From the NCBI RefSeq assembly GCF_044324875.1, contig NZ_CP172185.1: 64,000 nt of DNA; one strand, written 5' to 3'. A program made the translations under genes and the position numbers. The notes beneath the pieces were generated by a model. The model searched no databases and had not been told where the DNA came from. It was given only the letters and a program-made list of their open reading frames with translations. Positions 18,003 through 29,261 of the stretch are shown here, piece by piece. This stretch comes from Escherichia coli. Lineage in GTDB: Bacteria; Pseudomonadota; Gammaproteobacteria; Enterobacterales; Enterobacteriaceae. Position 1 is the first letter of the stretch. Every line of letters begins with the position of its first letter.

Positions 18003-19031
18003 ATGGGATTGTTTACGACCCGCCAGTTACTCGGTTATACCGAACAAAAAGTGAAATTTCGTGCGCTGTTTCTGGAGCTGTTTTTCCGCCGTACGGTGAA
18101 TTTCCATACCGAAGAGGTGATGCTGGACAAAATTACCGGAAAAACGCCGGTGGCGGCCTATGTCTCCCCGGTTGTTGAAGGAAAAGTGCTGCGTCATCGT
18201 GGTGGTGAAACCCGCGTCTTGCGTCCGGGCTACGTCAAGCCGAAACACGAATTTAATTCCCGGCAGGCGGTTGAGCGCCTTCCTGGTGAAGATCCGGCTC
18301 AACTGAACGATCCGGCTTACCGCCGTCTGCGTATCATTACCGATAACCTCAAACAGGAAGAGCACGCGATTGTCCAGGTGGAAGAAATGCAGGCGGTAAA
18401 TGCCGTGCTGTATGGCAAATACACCATGGAAGGAGACCAGTTCGAGAAAATTGAGGTCGATTTTGGCAGATCGCCGGCGAATAACATTACGCAGGCCAGT
18501 GGTAAAAAATGGTCTGAGCACGATCGTGACACGTTCGATCCTGCGCATGATATTGACCTCTACTGCGACCAGGCCAGCGGCCTTGTGAATATTGCCATTA
18601 TGGACGGTACCGTCTGGCGTCTGCTGAATGGTTTTAAGCTGTTCCGCGAAAAACTGGATACCCGTCGCGGTTCAAATTCGCAACTCGAAACGGCAGTGAA
18701 AGACCTGGGGGCGGTGGTGTCTTTCAAAGGGTATTACGGTGATCTGGCCATTGTGGTGGCGAAAACGTCTTATGTGGCAGAGGACGGTACCGAAAAACGT
18801 TATCTGCCAGACGGCACGCTGGTCCTGGGGAATACTGCTGCAGATGGGATCCGTTGTTACGGTGCCATTCAGGATGCACAGGCGTTGTCTGAAGGAGTGG
18901 TGGCCTCTTCCCGTTATCCGAAACACTGGCTGACGGTGGGGGATCCCGGCCGTGAATTTACCATGACGCAGTCCGCGCCGCTGATGGTGTTGCCGGACCC
19001 GGATGAGTTTGTGGTGGTACAGGTGAAATAA
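18003..19031 (+). CDS. E: Major capsid protein (lambda gpE-like)
   Basis: 342 aa; position and size as lambda E. Confidence 0.9.
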   Translation: MGLFTTRQLLGYTEQKVKFRALFLELFFRRTVNFHTEEVMLDKITGKTPVAAYVSPVVEGKVLRHRGGETRVLRPGYVKPKHEFNSRQAVERLPGEDPAQLNDPAYRRLRIITDNLKQEEHAIVQVEEMQAVNAVLYGKYTMEGDQFEKIEVDFGRSPANNITQASGKKWSEHDRDTFDPAHDIDLYCDQASGLVNIAIMDGTVWRLLNGFKLFREKLDTRRGSNSQLETAVKDLGAVVSFKGYYGDLAIVVAKTSYVAEDGTEKRYLPDGTLVLGNTAADGIRCYGAIQDAQALSEGVVASSRYPKHWLTVGDPGREFTMTQSAPLMVLPDPDEFVVVQVK

Positions 19032-19082
19032 TCCGTGAGCGGGGGCGAAATGCCCCCGTGTCTTTTTTCACAGGGGGCTGAT

Positions 19083-19445
19083 ATGGCAACGAAAGAGCAA
19101 AATCTGAAACGGCTTGATGAACTGGCCCGGATTCTGGGGCGTGAGCCGGATATATCCGGGAGTGCCGCAGAGATAGCGCAGCGGGTGGCGGAATGGGAAG
19201 AGGAAGCAGAGGACAAAAACCAGGAGAGTGATGAGAACGAAAGGCATTTGATGACGTATAGCTACTCCACTGGCGGGGATGAAATGAGCACTGTTCGTGT
19301 ACTCAAAACCCTGCATGTGGCGGGAAAACATCCGCATGATGACAGTGATATGGAGATTGTTGTTACAGGTATGACTGTCAGAGTTGATCCAGTGAATGTT
19401 GCGGAACTTGTCCTGGAGGGGCTTGTTACAGATGAAAGTTATTAA
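19083..19445 (+). CDS. DNA-packaging protein FI-like
   Basis: Position between E and FII; acidic middle region; ATG 19083 chosen over upstream starts. Confidence 0.5.
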   Translation: MATKEQNLKRLDELARILGREPDISGSAAEIAQRVAEWEEEAEDKNQESDENERHLMTYSYSTGGDEMSTVRVLKTLHVAGKHPHDDSDMEIVVTGMTVRVDPVNVAELVLEGLVTDESY

Positions 19446-19794
19446 TATCAGGGATAACGGTTTTGATACAGCCATTGCCCGGGCTGATGAAACGATACGC
19501 GGGCATATGGGAACGTCAGCCACCATTACATCCGGTGAGCAGCCCGGCGCAGTAATACGTGGTGTTTTTGATGACCCTGAAAATATCAGCTATGCCGGAC
19601 AGGGCGTGCGCGTTGAAGGCTCCAGCCCGTCCCTGTTTGTCCGGACTGATGATGTGCGGCAACTGCGGCGTGGAGACACGCTGACCATCGGTGAGGAAAA
19701 CTTCTGGATAGACCGGGTTTCGCCGGATGATGGCGGAAGCTGTCATCTGTGGCTGGAGCGGGGAGCGCCGCCTGCCACGGCGCGCCGACGCTGA
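19432..19794 (+). CDS. FII: Head-tail connector (lambda gpFII-like)
   Basis: TAIARADETIRGHMGTSATITSGEQPGAVIRGVFDDPENISYAGQGVRVEGSSPSLFVRTDDVRQLRRGDTLTIGEENFW nearly identical to recalled lambda FII. Confidence 0.85.
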   Translation: MKVINIRDNGFDTAIARADETIRGHMGTSATITSGEQPGAVIRGVFDDPENISYAGQGVRVEGSSPSLFVRTDDVRQLRRGDTLTIGEENFWIDRVSPDDGGSCHLWLERGAPPATARRR

Positions 19795-20114
19795 GGGAGT
19801 GAGTATGTATATCCGGGGTATGGAAAATGCCATTGAAAACCTGAGCCGTATTAACCGCAGTGCGGTACCCGGTGCGGCGGCGATGGCCTTAAACCGGCTG
19901 GGTTCTGCAGTCACTGCGCAATCGGCATCACAGGTATCCCGTGAGGTCAAAATCCCACGGAAATTTGTCCGTGAAAGGATGAAGCTAAAAAAGGCCACAC
20001 CAAAAAATCAGTCTGTCCGGATCTAGACTGGCCCCCTGAATCTCCAGACAACCAGTATCACTTAAATAAGTGATAGTCTTAATACTAGTTTTTAGACTAG
20101 TCATTGGAGAACAG

Positions 20115-20480
20115 ATGATTGATGTCTTAGGGCCGGAGAAACGCAGACGGCGTACCACACAGGAAAAGATCGCAATTGTTCAGCAGAGCTTTGAACCGGG
20201 GATGACGGTCTCCCTCGTTGCCCGGCAACATGGTGTAGCAGCCAGCCAGTTATTTCTCTGGCGTAAGCAATACCAGGAAGGAAGTCTTACTGCTGTCGCC
20301 GCCGGAGAACAGGTTGTTCCTGCCTCTGAACTTGCTGCCGCCATGAAGCAGATTAAAGAACTCCAGCGCCTGCTCGGCAAGAAAACGATGGAAAATGAAC
20401 TCCTCAAAGAAGCCGTTGAATATGGACGGGCAAAAAAGTGGATAGCGCACGCGCCCTTATTGCCCGGGGATGGGGAGTAA
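20115..20480 (+). CDS. insC: IS2 transposase OrfA (InsC)
   Basis: [26 protein letters not shown]... recognised as IS2 InsC. Confidence 0.85.
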
Positions 20481-21343
20481 GCTTAGTCAGCCGTTGTCTC
20501 CGGGTGTCGCGTGCGCAGTTGCACGTCATTCTCAGACGAACCGATGACTGGATGGATGGCCGCCGCAGTCGTCACACTGATGATACGGATGTGCTTCTCC
20601 GTATACACCATGTTATCGGAGAGCTGCCAACGTATGGTTATCGTCGGGTATGGGCGCTGCTTCGCAGACAGGCAGAACTTGATGGTATGCCTGCGATCAA
20701 TGCCAAACGTGTTTACCGGATCATGCGCCAGAATGCGCTGTTGCTTGAGCGAAAACCTGCTGTACCGCCATCGAAACGGGCACATACAGGCAGAGTGGCT
20801 GTGAAAGAAAGTAATCAGCGATGGTGCTCTGACGGGTTCGAGTTCCGCTGTGATAACGGAGAAAAACTGCGAGTCACGTTCGCGCTGGACTGCTGTGACC
20901 GTGAGGCACTGCACTGGGCGGTCACTACGGGCGGCTTCAACAGTGAAACAGTACAGGACGTCATGCTGGGAGCGGTGGAACGCCGCTTCGGCAACGAGCT
21001 TCCGGCGTCTCCAGTAGAGTGGCTGACGGATAATGGTTCATGCTACCGGGCTAATGAAACACGGCAGTTTGCCCGGATGTTGGGGCTTGAACCGAAGAGC
21101 ACGGCGGTGCGGAGTCCGGAGAGTAACGGCATAGCAGAGAGCTTCGTGAAAACGATAAAGCGTGACTACATCAGTGTCATGCCCAAACCAGACGGGTTAA
21201 CGGCAGCAAAGAACCTTGCAGAGGCGTTCGAGCATTATAACGAATGGCATCCGCATAGTGCACTGGGTTATCGCTCGCCACGGGAATATCTACGGCAGCA
21301 AGCCAGTAATGGGTTAAGTGATAACAGGTGTCTGGAAATATAG
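20438..21343 (+). CDS. insD: IS2 transposase OrfB (InsD), expressed by -1 frameshift from OrfA
   Basis: 301-aa ORF with integrase-core-like region; overlaps insC in -1 frame. Confidence 0.85.
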
Positions 21344-21718
21344 GGGCAAATCCAGGATCGTGGTTAACCGGGGCGATTTTCCGGTGATCAAACTGGGTAA
21401 CGCCAGACTGCGACTGTCCAGGCGTAAACGTCGTCGAAAGGGCGAGCGTTCAGCCGAGAAAGGCGGAGGAAGTGTTCTTGTCGTGGGGAACCGCCGTATT
21501 CCGGGGGCTTTTATCCAGAGACTTAAAAACGGTCGCTGGCATGTTATGCAGCGGGAAGCAGGCCGAAATCGTTATCCTATTGATGTGGTGAAAATACCGA
21601 TGCAGGCTCCGCTGACGTCAGGGGTGCAGGAGAATATCACACGGTTGTACAGGGATAAGTTTCCCGCAGAACTGGCTGCCGCACTGAAACAGAAGATACG
21701 AATGGAGGTGAAAAAGCG

Positions 21719-22114
21719 ATGAAGCATACTGATATCCGCAATGCCGTGCTGAATGCGCTGGAGGAGACTACCGAGGGTGTGACGCTGTATGACGGACTGC
21801 CCGCCGTTATCGAAGACGGGGATTTTCCGGTTATTGCCGTTTATATCACGGATGCTGCATATACAGGTGAGGTGCTTGATGCGGATACGTGGGAGGCCAC
21901 TCTGCATATTAATCTGTTTCTTCCGGTCCAGGTTCCTGATGCTGAACTGGATGACTGGATGGAAAAACGCATTTATCCGGCGATTGAAAATATCCCCGCT
22001 CTGGCCGGACTGATAACCACCATGGTACCGCAGGGCTATGATTACCAGCGTGATCAGGACATGGGGTCATGGAGTGCGGCAGATCTGACTTATACCATTA
22101 CATACGATATGTGA
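21719..22114 (+). CDS. U: Minor tail protein U (lambda gpU-like)
   Basis: 131 aa; MKHTDIRNAVLNALEE...DLTYTITYDM parallels lambda U. Confidence 0.85.
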   Translation: MKHTDIRNAVLNALEETTEGVTLYDGLPAVIEDGDFPVIAVYITDAAYTGEVLDADTWEATLHINLFLPVQVPDAELDDWMEKRIYPAIENIPALAGLITTMVPQGYDYQRDQDMGSWSAADLTYTITYDM

Positions 22115-22123
22115 GGCTGAATA

Positions 22124-22861
22124 ATGACAACACCGAATCCGGCAGCACCGGTAAAAGGTGCAGGAACCACGCTCTGGGTATACACCGGAAAAGGGGATCC
22201 GTATGCGAATCCACTGTCCGATGTTGACTGGGAGCGTCTGGCAAAAGTGAAGGATCTGGCTCCCGGTGATATGACCGCTGAGTATTATGATGATAATTAT
22301 CTTGATGACGACGATGCGGACTGGGTTTCCACAGGGCAGGGGCAGAAGTCAGCAGGAGATACCAGTTTTACGCTGGCATGGAAACCCGGCGAAAACGGGC
22401 AGCGAGGGTTACTGGCATGGTTCGATCAGGGGGATGTTCGTGCCTATAAAATCCGCTTTCCGAACGGCACGGTGGATGTTTTTCGTGGCTGGGTGAGCAG
22501 TATTGGCAAAGCGATTACTGCAAAGGATGTTATCACGCGTACTGTAAAAGTGACCAATGTCGGACGTCCGTCTCTGGCGGAAGATCAGGGCAGTGTTACG
22601 GCGCTCACCGGTATTACCCTGACACCATCCACTCATACCTTGGCGAAGAACAGCACTGTGGATCTGACCGTGGCACTCCAGCCTGCGCGGGCTACCGATA
22701 AAACTTTCCGTGCCATTTCCACCGACACATCAAAAGCGACGATCAGCGTTAATGATATGACCATCACAGTGAAGGGCATCGCTGCGGGTAAATCGCAGAT
22801 CCTGGCCATCAGTGGTGACGGTCAGTTTGCGGCTGTCGCAGAAATCAATGTTACGGGCTGA
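22124..22861 (+). CDS. V: Major tail protein V with C-terminal Ig-like domain
   Basis: 245 aa; position and size as lambda V. Confidence 0.9.
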
Positions 22862-22896
22862 TATCAGGCCTTTCTGCTTTTTCCGGAGTTTTACCG

Positions 22897-23301
22897 ATGT
22901 TTCTCAAAAATGAACCGTTTGAATATAACGGGCAGTCCGTCACGCTCACGGAACTGTCAGCCCTGCAGCGTATCAGCCACCTTGCCTTCCTGAAAGCGCG
23001 TGAAGAGGCTGAGGGGGGTGATGATATACAGGTGGCACTGGATGACACTATCCGGGAGGGGGCATACCTTGTGGCTATGTCACTGTGGCATACCCATCCT
23101 GTAAAGGGGACGCTGGGATCGCCGGAAGACGAAGAACGACAACTGATGAATGAGGTATTGCAGAGATGGCCGGTGGAGGCCATCTCTGCAGCATTCAGTC
23201 GTGTCATTGTTCTGTCGGGAATGGTGACCCCGGTACGGACCGCGCCGGAAGAGGAGGAGACTGAAGCGGTGACGGCGGGAAAGCCTTCGACAGTGAACTG
23301 A
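22897..23301 (+). CDS. G: Tail assembly chaperone G
   Basis: MFLKNEPFEYNGQSVTLTELSALQRISHLAF parallels lambda G. Confidence 0.8.
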   Translation: MFLKNEPFEYNGQSVTLTELSALQRISHLAFLKAREEAEGGDDIQVALDDTIREGAYLVAMSLWHTHPVKGTLGSPEDEERQLMNEVLQRWPVEAISAAFSRVIVLSGMVTPVRTAPEEEETEAVTAGKPSTVN

Positions 23302-23729
23302 ATTTTGTCCTGAGACTGGCGCGTGAGATGGGAAGACCCGACTGGCGCGCCATGCTGGCGGATATGTCATCAACGGAATATGCCGACTGGCATCAGTTTT
23401 ACCGTACGCATTATTTTCATGATGTGCTGCTGGATCAGCATTTTGCTGGGCTGACGTATACCGTGCTCAGCCTGTTTTTCAGCGATCCGGATATGCATCC
23501 GCTGGATTTCAGTCTGCTGAACCGGCGTGAGGCTGACGAAGAGCCTGAAGATGACGTGCTGATGCAGAAAGCAGCAGGGCTTGCCGGAGGGGTTCGTTTT
23601 GACCCTGCGGGGAATAAAGTCATCTGCATTGCCTCTGATGTGGAGGATATGACGGGGGATGGTGTCATGCTGATGACGATATCGGAAGGTATAGCAGGAG
23701 GTAGACGGTATGGCTCAACCGGTCAGTGA
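22897..23729 (+). CDS. Tail assembly chaperone G-T fusion via programmed -1 frameshift
   Basis: Slippery heptamer G GGA AAG at 23277-23283 in G frame; the -1 frame is open from there to 23729. Confidence 0.6.
23277..23283 (+). promoter_or_regulatory. Programmed -1 ribosomal frameshift slippery site GGGAAAG
   Basis: Same heptamer and frame register as the lambda G/GT site. Confidence 0.6.
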
Positions 23730-25077
23730 TCTTGTCGTTGATATGACGCTGGATGCCACCCGGTTCAGCGAACAGATCAAAAAGGTCAGGCAGCATTTTC
23801 AGCAGGTGGACAGTGATGCAGGAAAAACGGCTGTTGCTGTTGAGCAATCCATGTCCCGGCAGGCGGAAGCTGCCCGCCGTGCCGGGATATCCATCGGTCA
23901 GTATAAGGCTGCGATGCGCACTCTGCCCGCGCAGTTTACTGATATCGCCACGCAACTGGCCGGTGGTCAGAGTCCATGGCTGATCCTGTTGCAGCAGGGC
24001 GGTCAGGTGAAGGACTCCTTCGGCGGACTGATCCCCATGTTCCGGGGACTTGCGGGGGCCGTTTCGTTACCAGCTGTCGGGGTGGGGGCTTTGGCTGCAG
24101 CGACAGGAGCGCTGGCGTATGCCTGGTACCAGGGTGACTCAATCCTGTCTGATTTCAGTAAAACGCTCGTATTGTCCGGTAATCAGGCAGGACTGACGGC
24201 AGATCGTATGCTGGCCCTGTCCAGAGCCGGGCAGGCAGCAGGGCTGACGTTTAACCAGACCAGCGAATCACTCAGTGCACTGGTTAAGGCGGGGGTACGC
24301 GGTGAGGCTCAGATTGCATCCATCAGCCAGAGTGTGGCGCGTTTCTCCTCTGCATCCGGCGTGGAGGTGGACAGGGTCGCTGAAGCCTTCGGGAAGCTGA
24401 CCTCTGACCCGACATCGGGGCTGACGGCGATGGCGCGCCAGTTCCATAACGTGACGGCGGAGCAGATTGCGTATGTTGCTCAGTTGCAGCGTTCCGGCGA
24501 TGAAGCAGGGGCATTGCAGGCGGCAAACGAGGCCGCAACGAAAGGGTTTGATGACCAGACCCGTCGACTGAAAGAGAACATGGGCACACTGGAGACCTGG
24601 GCAGACAAAACTGCCGGAGCGTTCAGAAGCATGTGGGACGCTATTCTGGATATTGGTCGCCCGGAGTCCTCTGCTGACATACTGGATAAGGCGCAGAAAG
24701 CCTTTGATGAAGCAGATAAAAAATGGCAGTGGTATCAGAGCCGCAGTCACCGACGGGGTAAAACATCTTCATTTCGTGCGAATCTTCAGGGCGCGTGGGA
24801 TGACAGAGTAAATGCGCAACTGGGGCTTTCAGCGGCCACACTGCAGGCTGATCTTGAAAAAGCCAGTGAGATGGCTGCAAAATGGCATCTGAATCGATCG
24901 CAGTTTGGCATTCGAATCGATCATGATTTGGCATCCATCTCCGATCACAGTTTGGCATCACAATCGATCACGATTTGGCATGCTTCCGATCATTGATTGG
25001 CATCCTGCCAGTCACTCCGGGAATTAACTCTTTTCACCACAGTCTCCATTGCCGTGTTTAAACCAGTGGAGACGTCA

Positions 25078-26643
25078 ATGTCCAGAAAGAGAAAATCCAG
25101 GAGCACTATGGAAACCTGTTTTAAGATCCTTCAGCTCAAGTTCGACAAGAAGCTGACTAACCGTTGTATCGGACTGACGTTACACATCAGCGCCTCAACC
25201 GTTTTTGAGGTTCTTGCCCGCTTCAAAGCCTCTTCTCTGTCATGGCCATTACCTGCTGATATATCCCATGACACGCTGGAGAAACTCATTTTTCCGCCCA
25301 AAGACACCTTTGCATCAGAGCTTGTAATGCCTGACATGTTGTACTTCGATACGGAAATGAGAAAACCAGGTGTGACGCGGCAACTGTTGTGGATGGAATA
25401 CAAGGCACAGGCGGGTAACAAAGCGATGGGATACTCGCACTTCTGCCGTTGCTACCGGGAGTGGAAAAAAACGCGACGTCTCTCCATGCGCCAGGAGCAT
25501 CGTGCCGGCGAAAAGCTTTTTATCGACTTCTGTGGTCCTACGGTTCCTGTTATTAATCCGGACACCGGTGAGATACGCCGCGTGGCAATCTTCGTGGCCG
25601 TAATGGGGGCGTCCAACTATACCTACGTTGAAGCGTGCGAAGGTCAGGACATGATGTCATGGTTAAATGCCCACAGCCGTTGCCTGACCTTCCTGGGCGG
25701 CGTACCGAAGCTGCTCATCCCCGATAACCTCAGAAGCGCAGTGAAAAAGGCCGATCGATATGAGCCTGTCATCAACGACAGTTATCAGGCACTGGCTGAG
25801 CACTATGGCACGGTTATCATCCCGGCCCGACCACGCAAACCTAAAGATAAACCAAAAGCAGAAAACGGCGTCCTCATCGTTGAACGATGGCTTCTTGCCC
25901 GCATCCGTAATGAAACCTTCCACACGCTCAGGGCGCTGAATGCGCGCCTTAGGGAGTTACTGACAGACATGAATAACCGGCCAATGAAGGGGTACGGCAA
26001 TCAAACCCGTGCAGAACGCTTCCGCATACTGGATGCGCCAGCACTCTCTCCGCTGCCTCTGGCACCTTATGAATACACGGAATACAAAGCTGTGAAGGTT
26101 GGCCCTGACTACCACGTTGAATATGCCCGTCACTGGTACTCCGTTCCACACGAACTGGTCGGTCAGCGTCTGTCACTGAAGGCGGGGCAGTCGGTGGTAC
26201 AGCTCTGGCACAAGGGGCAGTGTGTGGCGCAACATCCGCGCAGCACACATGAATATAAACACACAACCAATCCGCTTCACATGCCAGAGCGCCACCGGCA
26301 GCACGGGACATGGACACCGGAACGCCTGATCGAGCAGGGAAAACGTACGGGCCCGTCCACAGGCCGGGTGGTTGAATCCATGCTGAAGGCAAAACCCCAT
26401 CCGGAACTGGCTTATCGTGCAGTTCTGGGGCTGCTGGCACTTCAGAAAAAATACGGCCCGGAACGGCTGGAAAAGGCCTGTTACGTTGCCCTGCACTATA
26501 ACGCCCCTGACAGACGCTTTATCGACAATCTGCTGCGTCACCATCGGGAGAACCTGGAGCTTCCATTATCCCGCCAGGGCGAACAACATCCGGCATATGC
26601 TTCAGAGCATGAAAACCTGCGTGGTCCGGGCTACTACCACTGA
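25078..26643 (+). CDS. istA: IS21-family transposase IstA
   Basis: N-terminal HTH-like region then integrase-core-like region; start uncertain (25078 or 25108). Confidence 0.8.
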   Translation: MSRKRKSRSTMETCFKILQLKFDKKLTNRCIGLTLHISASTVFEVLARFKASSLSWPLPADISHDTLEKLIFPPKDTFASELVMPDMLYFDTEMRKPGVTRQLLWMEYKAQAGNKAMGYSHFCRCYREWKKTRRLSMRQEHRAGEKLFIDFCGPTVPVINPDTGEIRRVAIFVAVMGASNYTYVEACEGQDMMSWLNAHSRCLTFLGGVPKLLIPDNLRSAVKKADRYEPVINDSYQALAEHYGTVIIPARPRKPKDKPKAENGVLIVERWLLARIRNETFHTLRALNARLRELLTDMNNRPMKGYGNQTRAERFRILDAPALSPLPLAPYEYTEYKAVKVGPDYHVEYARHWYSVPHELVGQRLSLKAGQSVVQLWHKGQCVAQHPRSTHEYKHTTNPLHMPERHRQHGTWTPERLIEQGKRTGPSTGRVVESMLKAKPHPELAYRAVLGLLALQKKYGPERLEKACYVALHYNAPDRRFIDNLLRHHRENLELPLSRQGEQHPAYASEHENLRGPGYYH

Positions 26644-26659
26644 CAGAAGGAACAACAGT

Positions 26660-27415
26660 ATGAGTGATAACCTGTTAAACAAACTGACCCAACTGAAACT
26701 CCCGGCGATGGCCGGGAGCCTGATACGGCAGCGGGAAACGCCTCAGACCTACGACGAACTGTCGTTCGAGGAAAGGCTGACGCTGCTGGTTGATGACGAG
26801 CTTCTGAGCAGGGAAAACAGCCGTGTGGCACGGTTGAGAAAAAATGCCGGCCTGAAATACCAGGCAACACCGGAAGGGCTGCGCTATCCGGCCTCAAGAG
26901 GTCTGCGGGCTGAACAGATGAGAGAACTGCTGAACGGCCACTACATAACCCACAGGAAAAACCTGCTGATAACCGGTCCGACAGGATGTGGCAAGAGCTG
27001 GATAGCCAATGCGCTGGGCGAACAGGCATGTCGACAGAAACACAGCGTCCGGTACTGTAGAACCGGGCGATTACTGGAACAACTGGCTCAGGGACGTGTT
27101 GATGGCAGCTGGCTGAAATATCTGAAACAGTTGCAAAAAATACAGGTTCTAATCCTGGACGATCTGGGGCTGGAACAGTTAAGTAACGCCCAGTGTAATG
27201 ACCTTCTGGAGCTCATAGAGGATCGTTACGGACAAAGCAGCACGATAGTGGTAAGCCAGTTCCCGGTAGATAAATGGCATGGTCTGATGGAGAACCCAAC
27301 AACAGCAGATGCCATCCTGGACAGACTGGTACATAACTCACACCGAGTGGTCCTTCAGGGAGAGTCACTGAGGAAAAATCCCCCGGTAGTGGAAAGCAGC
27401 GAAAAAACGCGTTAA
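26660..27415 (+). CDS. istB: IS21-family helper ATPase IstB
   Basis: Walker A GPTGCGKS, Walker B LILDDLG; 251 aa. Confidence 0.85.
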   Translation: MSDNLLNKLTQLKLPAMAGSLIRQRETPQTYDELSFEERLTLLVDDELLSRENSRVARLRKNAGLKYQATPEGLRYPASRGLRAEQMRELLNGHYITHRKNLLITGPTGCGKSWIANALGEQACRQKHSVRYCRTGRLLEQLAQGRVDGSWLKYLKQLQKIQVLILDDLGLEQLSNAQCNDLLELIEDRYGQSSTIVVSQFPVDKWHGLMENPTTADAILDRLVHNSHRVVLQGESLRKNPPVVESSEKTR

Positions 27416-28931
27416 AAAGCGGTAGAAAAAGTTAAGTTCCCGGTTGATCGAATGGATGCGAATCGCTGATCGGACTTCGATGCCAATCCGTGATCGAATA
27501 GAGCGGAATACGCAAGATGGCTGCAAAAGATCGTGCCGAATCAGAGGCTTCACGACTCAGGTACACTGAAGAGGCGCAGAAGGCTTACGAACGGCTGCAG
27601 ACACCGCTGGAAAAATATACCGCCCGTCAGGAAGAACTGAACAAGGCACTGAAAGACGGGAAAATCCTGCAGGCAGATTACAACACGCTGATGGCGGCGG
27701 CGAAAAAGGATTATGAAGCGACGCTGAAAAAGCCGAAACAGTCCGGCGTGAAGGTGTCTGCGGGCGATCGTCAGGAAGACAGTGCTCATGCTGCCCTGCT
27801 GACGCTTCAGGCTGAACTCCGGACGCTGGAGAAGCATGCCGGAGCAAATGAGAAAATCAGCCAGCAGCGCCGGGATTTGTGGAAGGCGGAGAGTCAGTTC
27901 GCGGTACTGGAGGAGGCGGCGCAACGTCGCCAGCTGTCTGCACAGGAGAAATCCCTGCTGGCGCATAAAGATGAGACGCTGGAGTACAAACGCCAGCTGG
28001 CGGAACTTGGCGATAAGATTGAACACCAGAAACGGCTGAACGAACTGGTACAGCAGGCGGAGAAATTCGCACAGCAGCAACGGGCAAAACGGGCCGCCAT
28101 TGATGCGAAAAGCCGGGGACTGACTGACCGGCAGGCAGCGCGGGAAGCCACGGAACAGCGCCTGAAGGAACAGTATGGCGATAATCCGCTGGCGCTGAAT
28201 AACGTCATGTCAGAGCAGAAAAAGACCTGGGCGGCTGAAGACCTGCTTCGCGGGAGCTGGATGGCAGGCCTGAAGTCCGGCTGGAGTGAGTGGGAAGAGA
28301 GCGCCACGGACAGTATGTCGCAGGTTAAAAGTGCTGCCACGCAGACCTTTGATGGTATTGCGCAGAATATGGCGGCGATGCTGACCGGCAGTGAACAGAA
28401 CTGGCGCAGCTTCACCCGCTCCGTGCTGTCCATGATGACAGAAATTCTGGTTAAGCAGGCAATGGTGGGGATTGTCGGGAGTATCGGCAGCGTCATTGGC
28501 GGTGCTGCCGGTGGTGGCGCATCAGTGTCAGGCGGTACAGCCATTCAGGCCGCTGCGGCAAAATTCCATTTTGCGACCGGGGGATTTACGGGAACCGGCG
28601 GCAAATATGAGCCAGCGGGGATTGTTCACCGTGGTGAATTTGTCTTCACGAAGGAGGCAACCAGCCGGATTGGTGTCGGCAACCTGTACCGCCTGATGCG
28701 GGGCTATGCGGAAGGTGGTTATGTGGGCGGTGCCGGAAGTCCGGCGCAGATGCGGCGGGCTGAAGGCATTAATTTTAATCAGAACAATCACGTGGTGATT
28801 CAGAACGACGGTACGAATGGTCTGCCAGGTCCACAGATGATGAAGGCAGTGTATGACATGGCCCGCAAGGGTGCCCGTGATGAAATTCAGGCACAGATGC
28901 GCGATGGTGGTCTGTTCTCCGGAGGTGGACG

Positions 28932-29261
28932 ATGAAAACCTTCCGCTGGAAAGTGAAACCCGGTATGGATGTGGCTTCGGCCCCTTCTGTAAGAAAGGTG
29001 CGCTTTGGTGATGGCTATTCCCAGCGAGCGCCTGCCGGGCTGAATGCCAACCTGAAAACGTACAGCGTGACGCTTTCTGTTCCCCGTTGGGAGGCCACGG
29101 CGCTGGAGTCGTTTCTGGCTGAGCACGGGGGCTGGAAGGCCTTTCTGTGGACGCCGCCTTATGAGTGGCGGCAGATAAAGGTGACCTGCGCAAAATGGTC
29201 GTCGCGGGTCAGTATGCTGCGTGTTGAGTTCAGCGCAGAGTTTGAACAGGTGGTGAACTGA
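28932..29261 (+). CDS. M: Minor tail protein M
   Basis: 109 aa; MKTFRWKVKPGMDVASAPSVRKVRFGDGYSQRAPAGLNANLKTYSVTL nearly identical to recalled lambda M. Confidence 0.9.
   Translation: MKTFRWKVKPGMDVASAPSVRKVRFGDGYSQRAPAGLNANLKTYSVTLSVPRWEATALESFLAEHGGWKAFLWTPPYEWRQIKVTCAKWSSRVSMLRVEFSAEFEQVVN

Follow-up and report, generated by a model that had tools for sequence, protein, structure and literature searches.

The window, i.e., the entire stretch of 64,000 nucleotides of Escherichia coli DNA analyzed in the current study, contains a prophage whose tail genes follow the lambda order Z-U-V-G-T-H, with the G/T pair flanked by V (tail tube) and H (tape measure). Gene G (positions 22897 to 23301, plus strand) encodes a 134-aa homologue of the tail assembly chaperone gpG, which is the zero-frame product of the locus. 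Its ORF matches the Pfam profile PF06894 (Phage_TAC_2) with an E value of 1.7e-40 over 123 of 126 profile positions, starts with an ATG codon and is preceded by a GGAG Shine-Dalgarno (SD) motif 9 nt upstream. The protein is 52% identical to lambda gpG (E=2e-43) and 6 residues shorter than its lambda counterpart. The T segment (23283 to 23729, plus strand) lies in the -1 frame relative to G and represents the C-terminal part of a predicted 277-aa GT fusion; its ORF is assigned to PF06223 (gpT; E=3.6e-15) and is 85% identical to lambda gpT. Both segments fall into PHROG phrog_32165, a G-T fusion model of 290 positions (E=6.9e-65 for the -1 ORF), in which the G ORF covers positions 1 to 134 and the -1 ORF positions 136 to 289.

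Upstream of G, gene V (22124 to 22861, plus strand; PF16461, E=1.1e-67; PF02368; 74% identity to lambda gpV) encodes the major tail tube protein, whose C-terminal domain is of the Big_2 type, and is in turn preceded by gene U (PF06141). Downstream of T, the tape measure gene H is present in two parts, a 5' part (23710 to 24882, plus strand; PF06791, E=2.1e-69) that is 77% identical to the N-terminal part of lambda gpH and a 3' part (27529 to 28935, plus strand; PF09718, Tape_meas_lam_C, E=1.5e-21), and a strong AGGAGG SD motif of H lies within the end of T. The succession V-G-T-H and the overlap of T with the start of H are common to the window and lambda. The V-G intergenic region harbors a terminator-like hairpin with a T-run (GGGCTGATATCAGGCCT TTCTGCTTTTT; 22855 to 22880) that overlaps the V stop codon and might attenuate read-through from the abundantly expressed V into G, T, and H.

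The gpG allele of the window is rare in public data. The nearest protein (99% identity) is encoded on a 600-bp metagenome contig of the ENA, followed by homologues from Citrobacter sp. Cb027 (81%) and Klebsiella pneumoniae (70%). No gpG match of at least 90% was found among the complete genomes of E. coli, for which the best band was 80 to 90% with partial coverage, and an exact 39-mer around the slip site discussed below had no match in the GTDB representative genomes. Megablast similarity to lambda (86%) begins at position 23275, i.e., 2 nt before the slippery heptamer, and the gpT alignment to lambda starts 2 residues after it. A divergent G module has therefore been joined to a lambda-like T essentially at the slip site, which indicates that the G|T boundary is a mosaic joint and that slip site and module junction coincide. 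The combination of a rare G allele and a lambda-like T, fused exactly at this position, illustrates modular exchange at the G|T boundary.

Slippery heptamer in the G/T overlap

A sequence-only reading of this DNA had proposed a GGGAAAG frameshift signal in the correct register near the end of G, between positions 23270 and 23290, together with a -1 frame that is open through T. Recomputation of the reading frames placed the heptamer at 23277 to 23283 on the plus strand, where the codons of G (GCG GGA AAG CCT TCG ACA GTG AAC TGA) split it as G GGA AAG and thus in the X XXY YYZ register. Its lysine codon is located 6 codons ahead of the UGA stop of G (23299 to 23301). The last upstream stop in the -1 frame is found at 23262 to 23264, and from 23265 this frame is open up to 23729, with its stop codon at 23727 to 23729. 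The -1 stop before T that could have contradicted the proposal was looked for again and is absent; from the slip site onwards, this frame runs without a stop until T ends. The +1 frame at the site is shut after 8 codons. The zero and -1 frames are both open in a stretch of 37 nt (23265 to 23301, plus strand), and only a -1 shift within this overlap can join G to T. G GGA AAG is the sole slippery heptamer of the overlap that stands in register, and the predicted GT fusion of 277 aa has the junction AVTAGK|AFDSELN.

The heptamer sequence itself is not rare. Five copies of GGGAAAG occur on the plus strand of the 64-kb window and one on the minus strand, which is close to the random expectation of about 4 per strand. 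It is the placement inside the overlap that is improbable: with 12 in-register positions available within the 37 nt, the expected count is 0.05 for any XXXYYYZ heptamer, 0.007 for XXXAAAR and 0.0009 for GGGAAAG.

The comparison with lambda, which had also been part of the initial proposal, was borne out at every level. The lambda genome (J02459) contains the identical nonamer GCGGGAAAG in the same register, its UGA likewise follows 6 codons after AAG, and the G and T protein families and the gene order agree. The overlap of both frames comprises 37 nt in the window versus 64 nt in lambda.

The assertion that the signal is conserved requires a more differentiated view, because the position and the lysine codon in the A site are indeed maintained, whereas the heptamer varies across the family. 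Relatives of the predicted fusion are encoded at 56 IMG/VR loci; GGGAAAG stands in register within the G/T overlap of 53 of them and AAAAAAG in that of one, and the other two contained only part of the region. DNA of eight diverged homologues was retrieved for an examination of the junction. In all nine diverged loci, including homologues with G identities of 45 to 81%, the equivalent position is occupied by GGGAAAG, GGGAAAA, AAAAAAG, or GGAAAAG, and T is always found in the -1 frame. G GGA AAG is present in Citrobacter (81% G identity), Klebsiella (70%), and the metagenome contig, G GGA AAA in Salmonella, A AAA AAG in C. freundii, E. coli A8, and one IMG/VR locus (L055), and G GAA AAG in Kluyvera, Rahnella, and Leclercia, whose G proteins are about 45 to 55% identical. 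A scan based on the T-domain alignment extended this survey to 139 loci with 41 distinct junction sequences, all of which fit the slippery-site pattern. The conserved feature is hence a lysine A-site codon that is prone to shifting and located within a short overlap, as would be expected as the signature of a selected recoding site. At the level of sequence comparison, the conservation of the same position in diverged homologues is a stronger argument than the chance counts and settles the matter.

One related IMG/VR locus (UViG_2695420576_000005; L002, 1833 to 1975) exhibits a rearranged 3' end of G with a premature stop upstream of GGGAAAG. It was considered as a natural in-frame G-T fusion and rejected on account of this stop, which prevents ribosomes in the G frame from reaching the heptamer; either the copy is defective or the sequence was misassembled.

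A probable programmed frameshift in a disrupted tail module

With the anatomy of the junction, the register, the open -1 frame, homology, synteny, and slippery-site conservation established by direct observation, we regard it as very likely that this lambda-like prophage carries a programmed -1 ribosomal frameshift signal of the lambda G/GT type. The signal is accordingly the already known one and not novel. The lambda G/GT frameshift was described by Levin, Hendrix and Casjens in 1993 (as cited in PMC5009743 and PMC3296357), and we infer the occurrence and the rate of slippage in the window from homology with this system. Most ribosomes translating G would pass G GGA AAG and stop at the UGA at 23299, thus producing the 134-aa gpG. 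If lambda is taken as a guide, a few per cent of them would slip back by one base with tRNA-Gly and tRNA-Lys on GGA-AAG; tandem re-pairing from GGA-AAG to GGG-AAA would then allow translation to go on in the -1 frame up to 23729, resulting in the 277-aa GT.

Slippage in lambda takes place on GGGAAAG, where about 96% of decoding events remain in the zero frame (PMC3296357). In E. coli, G_GGA_AAG has a strong tendency to shift that does not require stimulators (PMC5009743, PMC6815119). A single tRNA-Lys (mnm5s2UUU) decodes both AAG and AAA, and its hypomodification leads to more slippage (PMC3296357; PMC7618472). The balance between gpG and gpGT, at about 30:1, is critical (PMC5009743), and both proteins are needed for tail assembly (PMC3296357, PMC5009743): the tape measure protein gpH is coated by many gpG and few gpGT molecules, with gpGT binding gpH through its G part and recruiting the tail tube protein gpV through its T part, and both chaperones are absent from the virion (PMC5009743).

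The G/GT arrangement is widely conserved among long-tailed phages (PMC5009743), and comparable chaperone frameshifts in other long-tailed phages were reported by Xu, Hendrix and Duda in 2004 (cited in PMC5009743). The shared features are two overlapping ORFs between the major tail and tape measure genes and, towards the 3' end of the first of them, a slippery site that allows a low-level shift. However, these systems mostly lack sequence similarity and rely on diverse heptamers, or on shifts of +1 or -2, whereas the locus of the window is, unlike most of these cases, a direct sequence homologue of lambda's own genes. Tandem -1 slippage with tRNA-Lys on AAG in the A site likewise underlies the frameshifts of the E. 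coli dnaX gene (tau/gamma) and the OrfA/OrfAB pair of IS3-family elements, which fall into this bacterial class but have the heptamer A AAA AAG instead of G GGA AAG.

Unlike lambda, the prophage of the window is disrupted by insertion sequences. A 1,331-bp IS2 (20024 to 21354, plus strand), recognized by inverted repeats, a 5-bp target duplication (GGATC), and the HTH_Tnp_1 and rve domains of its ORFs, is located in the minor tail gene Z and separates the Z fragments 19727 to 20023 and 21355 to 21722, which match positions 1 to 71 and 68 to 190 of the Pfam Minor_tail_Z profile. The element brings its own -1 heptamer A AAA AAG (20432 to 20438), which stands in the register of orfA with orfB in the -1 frame and represents a second programmed-frameshift site in the window. 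Gene H is interrupted by ISSso4 (24883 to 27528, plus strand), a 2,646-bp member of the IS21 family with istA and istB (Pfam rve and IstB_IS21) that is 99.8% identical to E. coli ISSso4 copies; a flanking direct repeat of 14 nt (AGATGGCTGCAAAA) at 24869 and 27515 leaves its exact ends ambiguous. A third insertion sequence of the same prophage, an IS66-family element (38287 to 40620, minus strand) comprising a DDE_Tnp_IS66 transposase of 511 aa and two small upstream ORFs, is found in or next to the tail-fibre region. To the right, the prophage is flanked by yehQ and yehP, with 98.1% identity to E. coli chromosomes, and its replication region reaches up to 99.4% identity to E. coli prophages; the host genome is therefore of the Escherichia/Shigella type.

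Since H is split by ISSso4 and Z by IS2, no tails should be formed without complementation or IS excision, and the frameshift signal is probably intact but idle in the present genome. It is therefore likely that we are dealing with an inert relic, i.e., an intact sequence without present work in an inactivated tail module whose late genes are silent or useless. The two interrupted genes fit such a state particularly well, as H encodes the very substrate of gpG and gpGT, and the third element in the tail-fibre region points in the same direction. This assessment, however, concerns the present use of the signal and does not compete with the frameshift mechanism. Both insertions are clean: the in-silico removal of the 2,646 bp of ISSso4 restores an uninterrupted H of 859 aa, compared with 853 aa in lambda, and that of IS2 an uninterrupted Z ORF with a 220-aa reading. 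G, T, and V are free of frameshifts and premature stops. The decay is therefore recent and the signal itself undamaged; it could regain a productive role if the elements were excised precisely or if a lambdoid phage in the same cell provided complementation. The locus also exemplifies the intact survival of a recoding signal after a very recent inactivation of its prophage by insertion sequences.

Stimulatory elements and the downstream hairpin

High-efficiency frameshifting in dnaX and many IS elements depends on an upstream SD-like element and a close hairpin or pseudoknot, neither of which is present at canonical spacing around the heptamer of the G/T overlap. A canonical stimulator, either a structure 5 to 9 nt downstream or an SD-like sequence 10 to 14 nt upstream of the heptamer, was not found at the locus, and an Rfam scan of positions 19000 to 29000 at E<=1 yielded no match. 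This outcome is consistent with reviews of the low-level shift of lambda, which name no stimulator (PMC5009743, PMC6815119). Two candidates were discarded. The SD-like sequence GAGGAGGAG within G (23251 to 23259) ends 17 nt upstream of the heptamer and is absent from lambda and the other homologues, which speaks against a conserved stimulator. Slippage stimulated by ribosome collision at the UGA has its optimum with a stop 8 to 10 codons away (PMC6815119), but the A-site-to-A-site spacing in the window amounts to 6 codons. The distance between A site and stop is not conserved either, with only 2 codons in the Rahnella and Leclercia homologues.

The only stable and conserved structure 3' of the heptamer is a GC-rich hairpin at 23317 to 23352 (plus strand) with an 8-bp stem (UGGCGCGU/GCGCGCCA) and an inner stem. 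Folding of positions 23284 to 23373 resulted in a minimum free energy of -34.3 kcal/mol (z=-3.1). The hairpin follows the G stop at a distance of 15 nt, and the first AUG of the T frame (23328) lies within it. It was rejected as a classical -1 stimulator, because it starts 33 nt from the heptamer and is thus too distant; a stable structure of the dnaX or IS3 type, beginning about 5 to 9 nt downstream, is lacking.

The same hairpin emerged as the RNAalifold consensus structure of 13 diverse homologues and is retained in those of Rahnella, Leclercia, and Kluyvera. In 30 distinct junction sequences, pairing is possible in 98.1% of the cells, compared with 21 to 49% in slid controls. The covariation signal is small: 8 pairs are invariant, a compensatory change was detected in one pair only, and 13 of 500 shuffles show as much. 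At the protein level, the codons of the stem specify LARE...DWRAM, the best conserved peptide of T, and a comparison of five stem codons with the remainder of T revealed no significant reduction of synonymous diversity in the stem (Mann-Whitney p=0.078). It is hence unlikely that the hairpin is a functional RNA element of lambda-type G/T junctions that has so far escaped notice; its conservation may instead be a by-product of protein conservation and codon preference. If an RNA element did exist, it could suppress internal initiation or re-initiation in the T frame, modulate termination at the G stop, or shield the sparsely translated T segment from Rho and RNases while H is still expressed.

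Routes into T and annotation of the predicted fusion

An ATG-initiated ORF at 23328 to 23729 could in principle be translated on its own into a T protein of 133 aa, and the heptamer would then merely encode an incidental Gly-Lys dipeptide without any frameshift. A separate T CDS is indeed recorded in RefSeq for a homologous E. coli locus and in the original lambda record. The RefSeq entry, however, reflects an annotation convention and is not evidence of independent translation, and several observations render this explanation very unlikely. First, no SD motif was found before ATG 23328, whereas G and H are equipped with GGAG and AGGAGG, respectively, at proper spacing, and this start codon is enclosed by the stable conserved hairpin described above. 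Second, the conservation of the T-frame protein reaches 15 codons beyond the ATG up to the heptamer. The peptide K-A-F-D-S-E-L-N-F-V-L-R-L-A-R-E, encoded between the heptamer and ATG 23328, is conserved across homologues, and the underlying pattern K-x-F/L-x-x-E-L-x-F-x-L-x-LARE starts at the slip site. Third, the ATG is replaced by a phenylalanine codon (TTC or TTT) in three homologues (Rahnella, Kluyvera, and Leclercia; L061 to L063), none of which offers an alternative start. Finally, PHROG 32165 treats G and T as a single protein of 290 residues, and the expression of T in lambda is ascribed to the frameshift (PMC3296357, PMC5009743). The missing SD motif, the upstream conservation of the T frame, and the loss of the ATG in homologues therefore argue for G as the only route into T.

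Homopolymer runs can also make RNA polymerase slip, so that a base added or dropped in GGGAAA during transcription, rather than a shift of the ribosome, could fuse G to T, and the AAAAAAG variants of some homologues do contain six A's. Appreciable transcriptional slippage needs runs of roughly 7 to 9, however (reviewed in PMC5009743), and the three G's and three A's of the locus are far below this length; conservation concerns the lysine codon in the A site and the X XXY YYZ register of the codons but not the run length. As the modification of tRNA-Lys moreover alters the G:GT ratio in lambda, which points to the ribosome (PMC3296357), polymerase slippage is an extremely unlikely source of the fusion.

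With ribosomal slippage as the favored route, T should be annotated as joined with G (22897..23283, 23283..23729) to encode the 277-aa GT protein and not as a free-standing gene of 133 aa. Beyond this correction the importance of the locus is small, as it adds one more case of textbook recoding. Some phage records annotate the product as "tail assembly protein GT."
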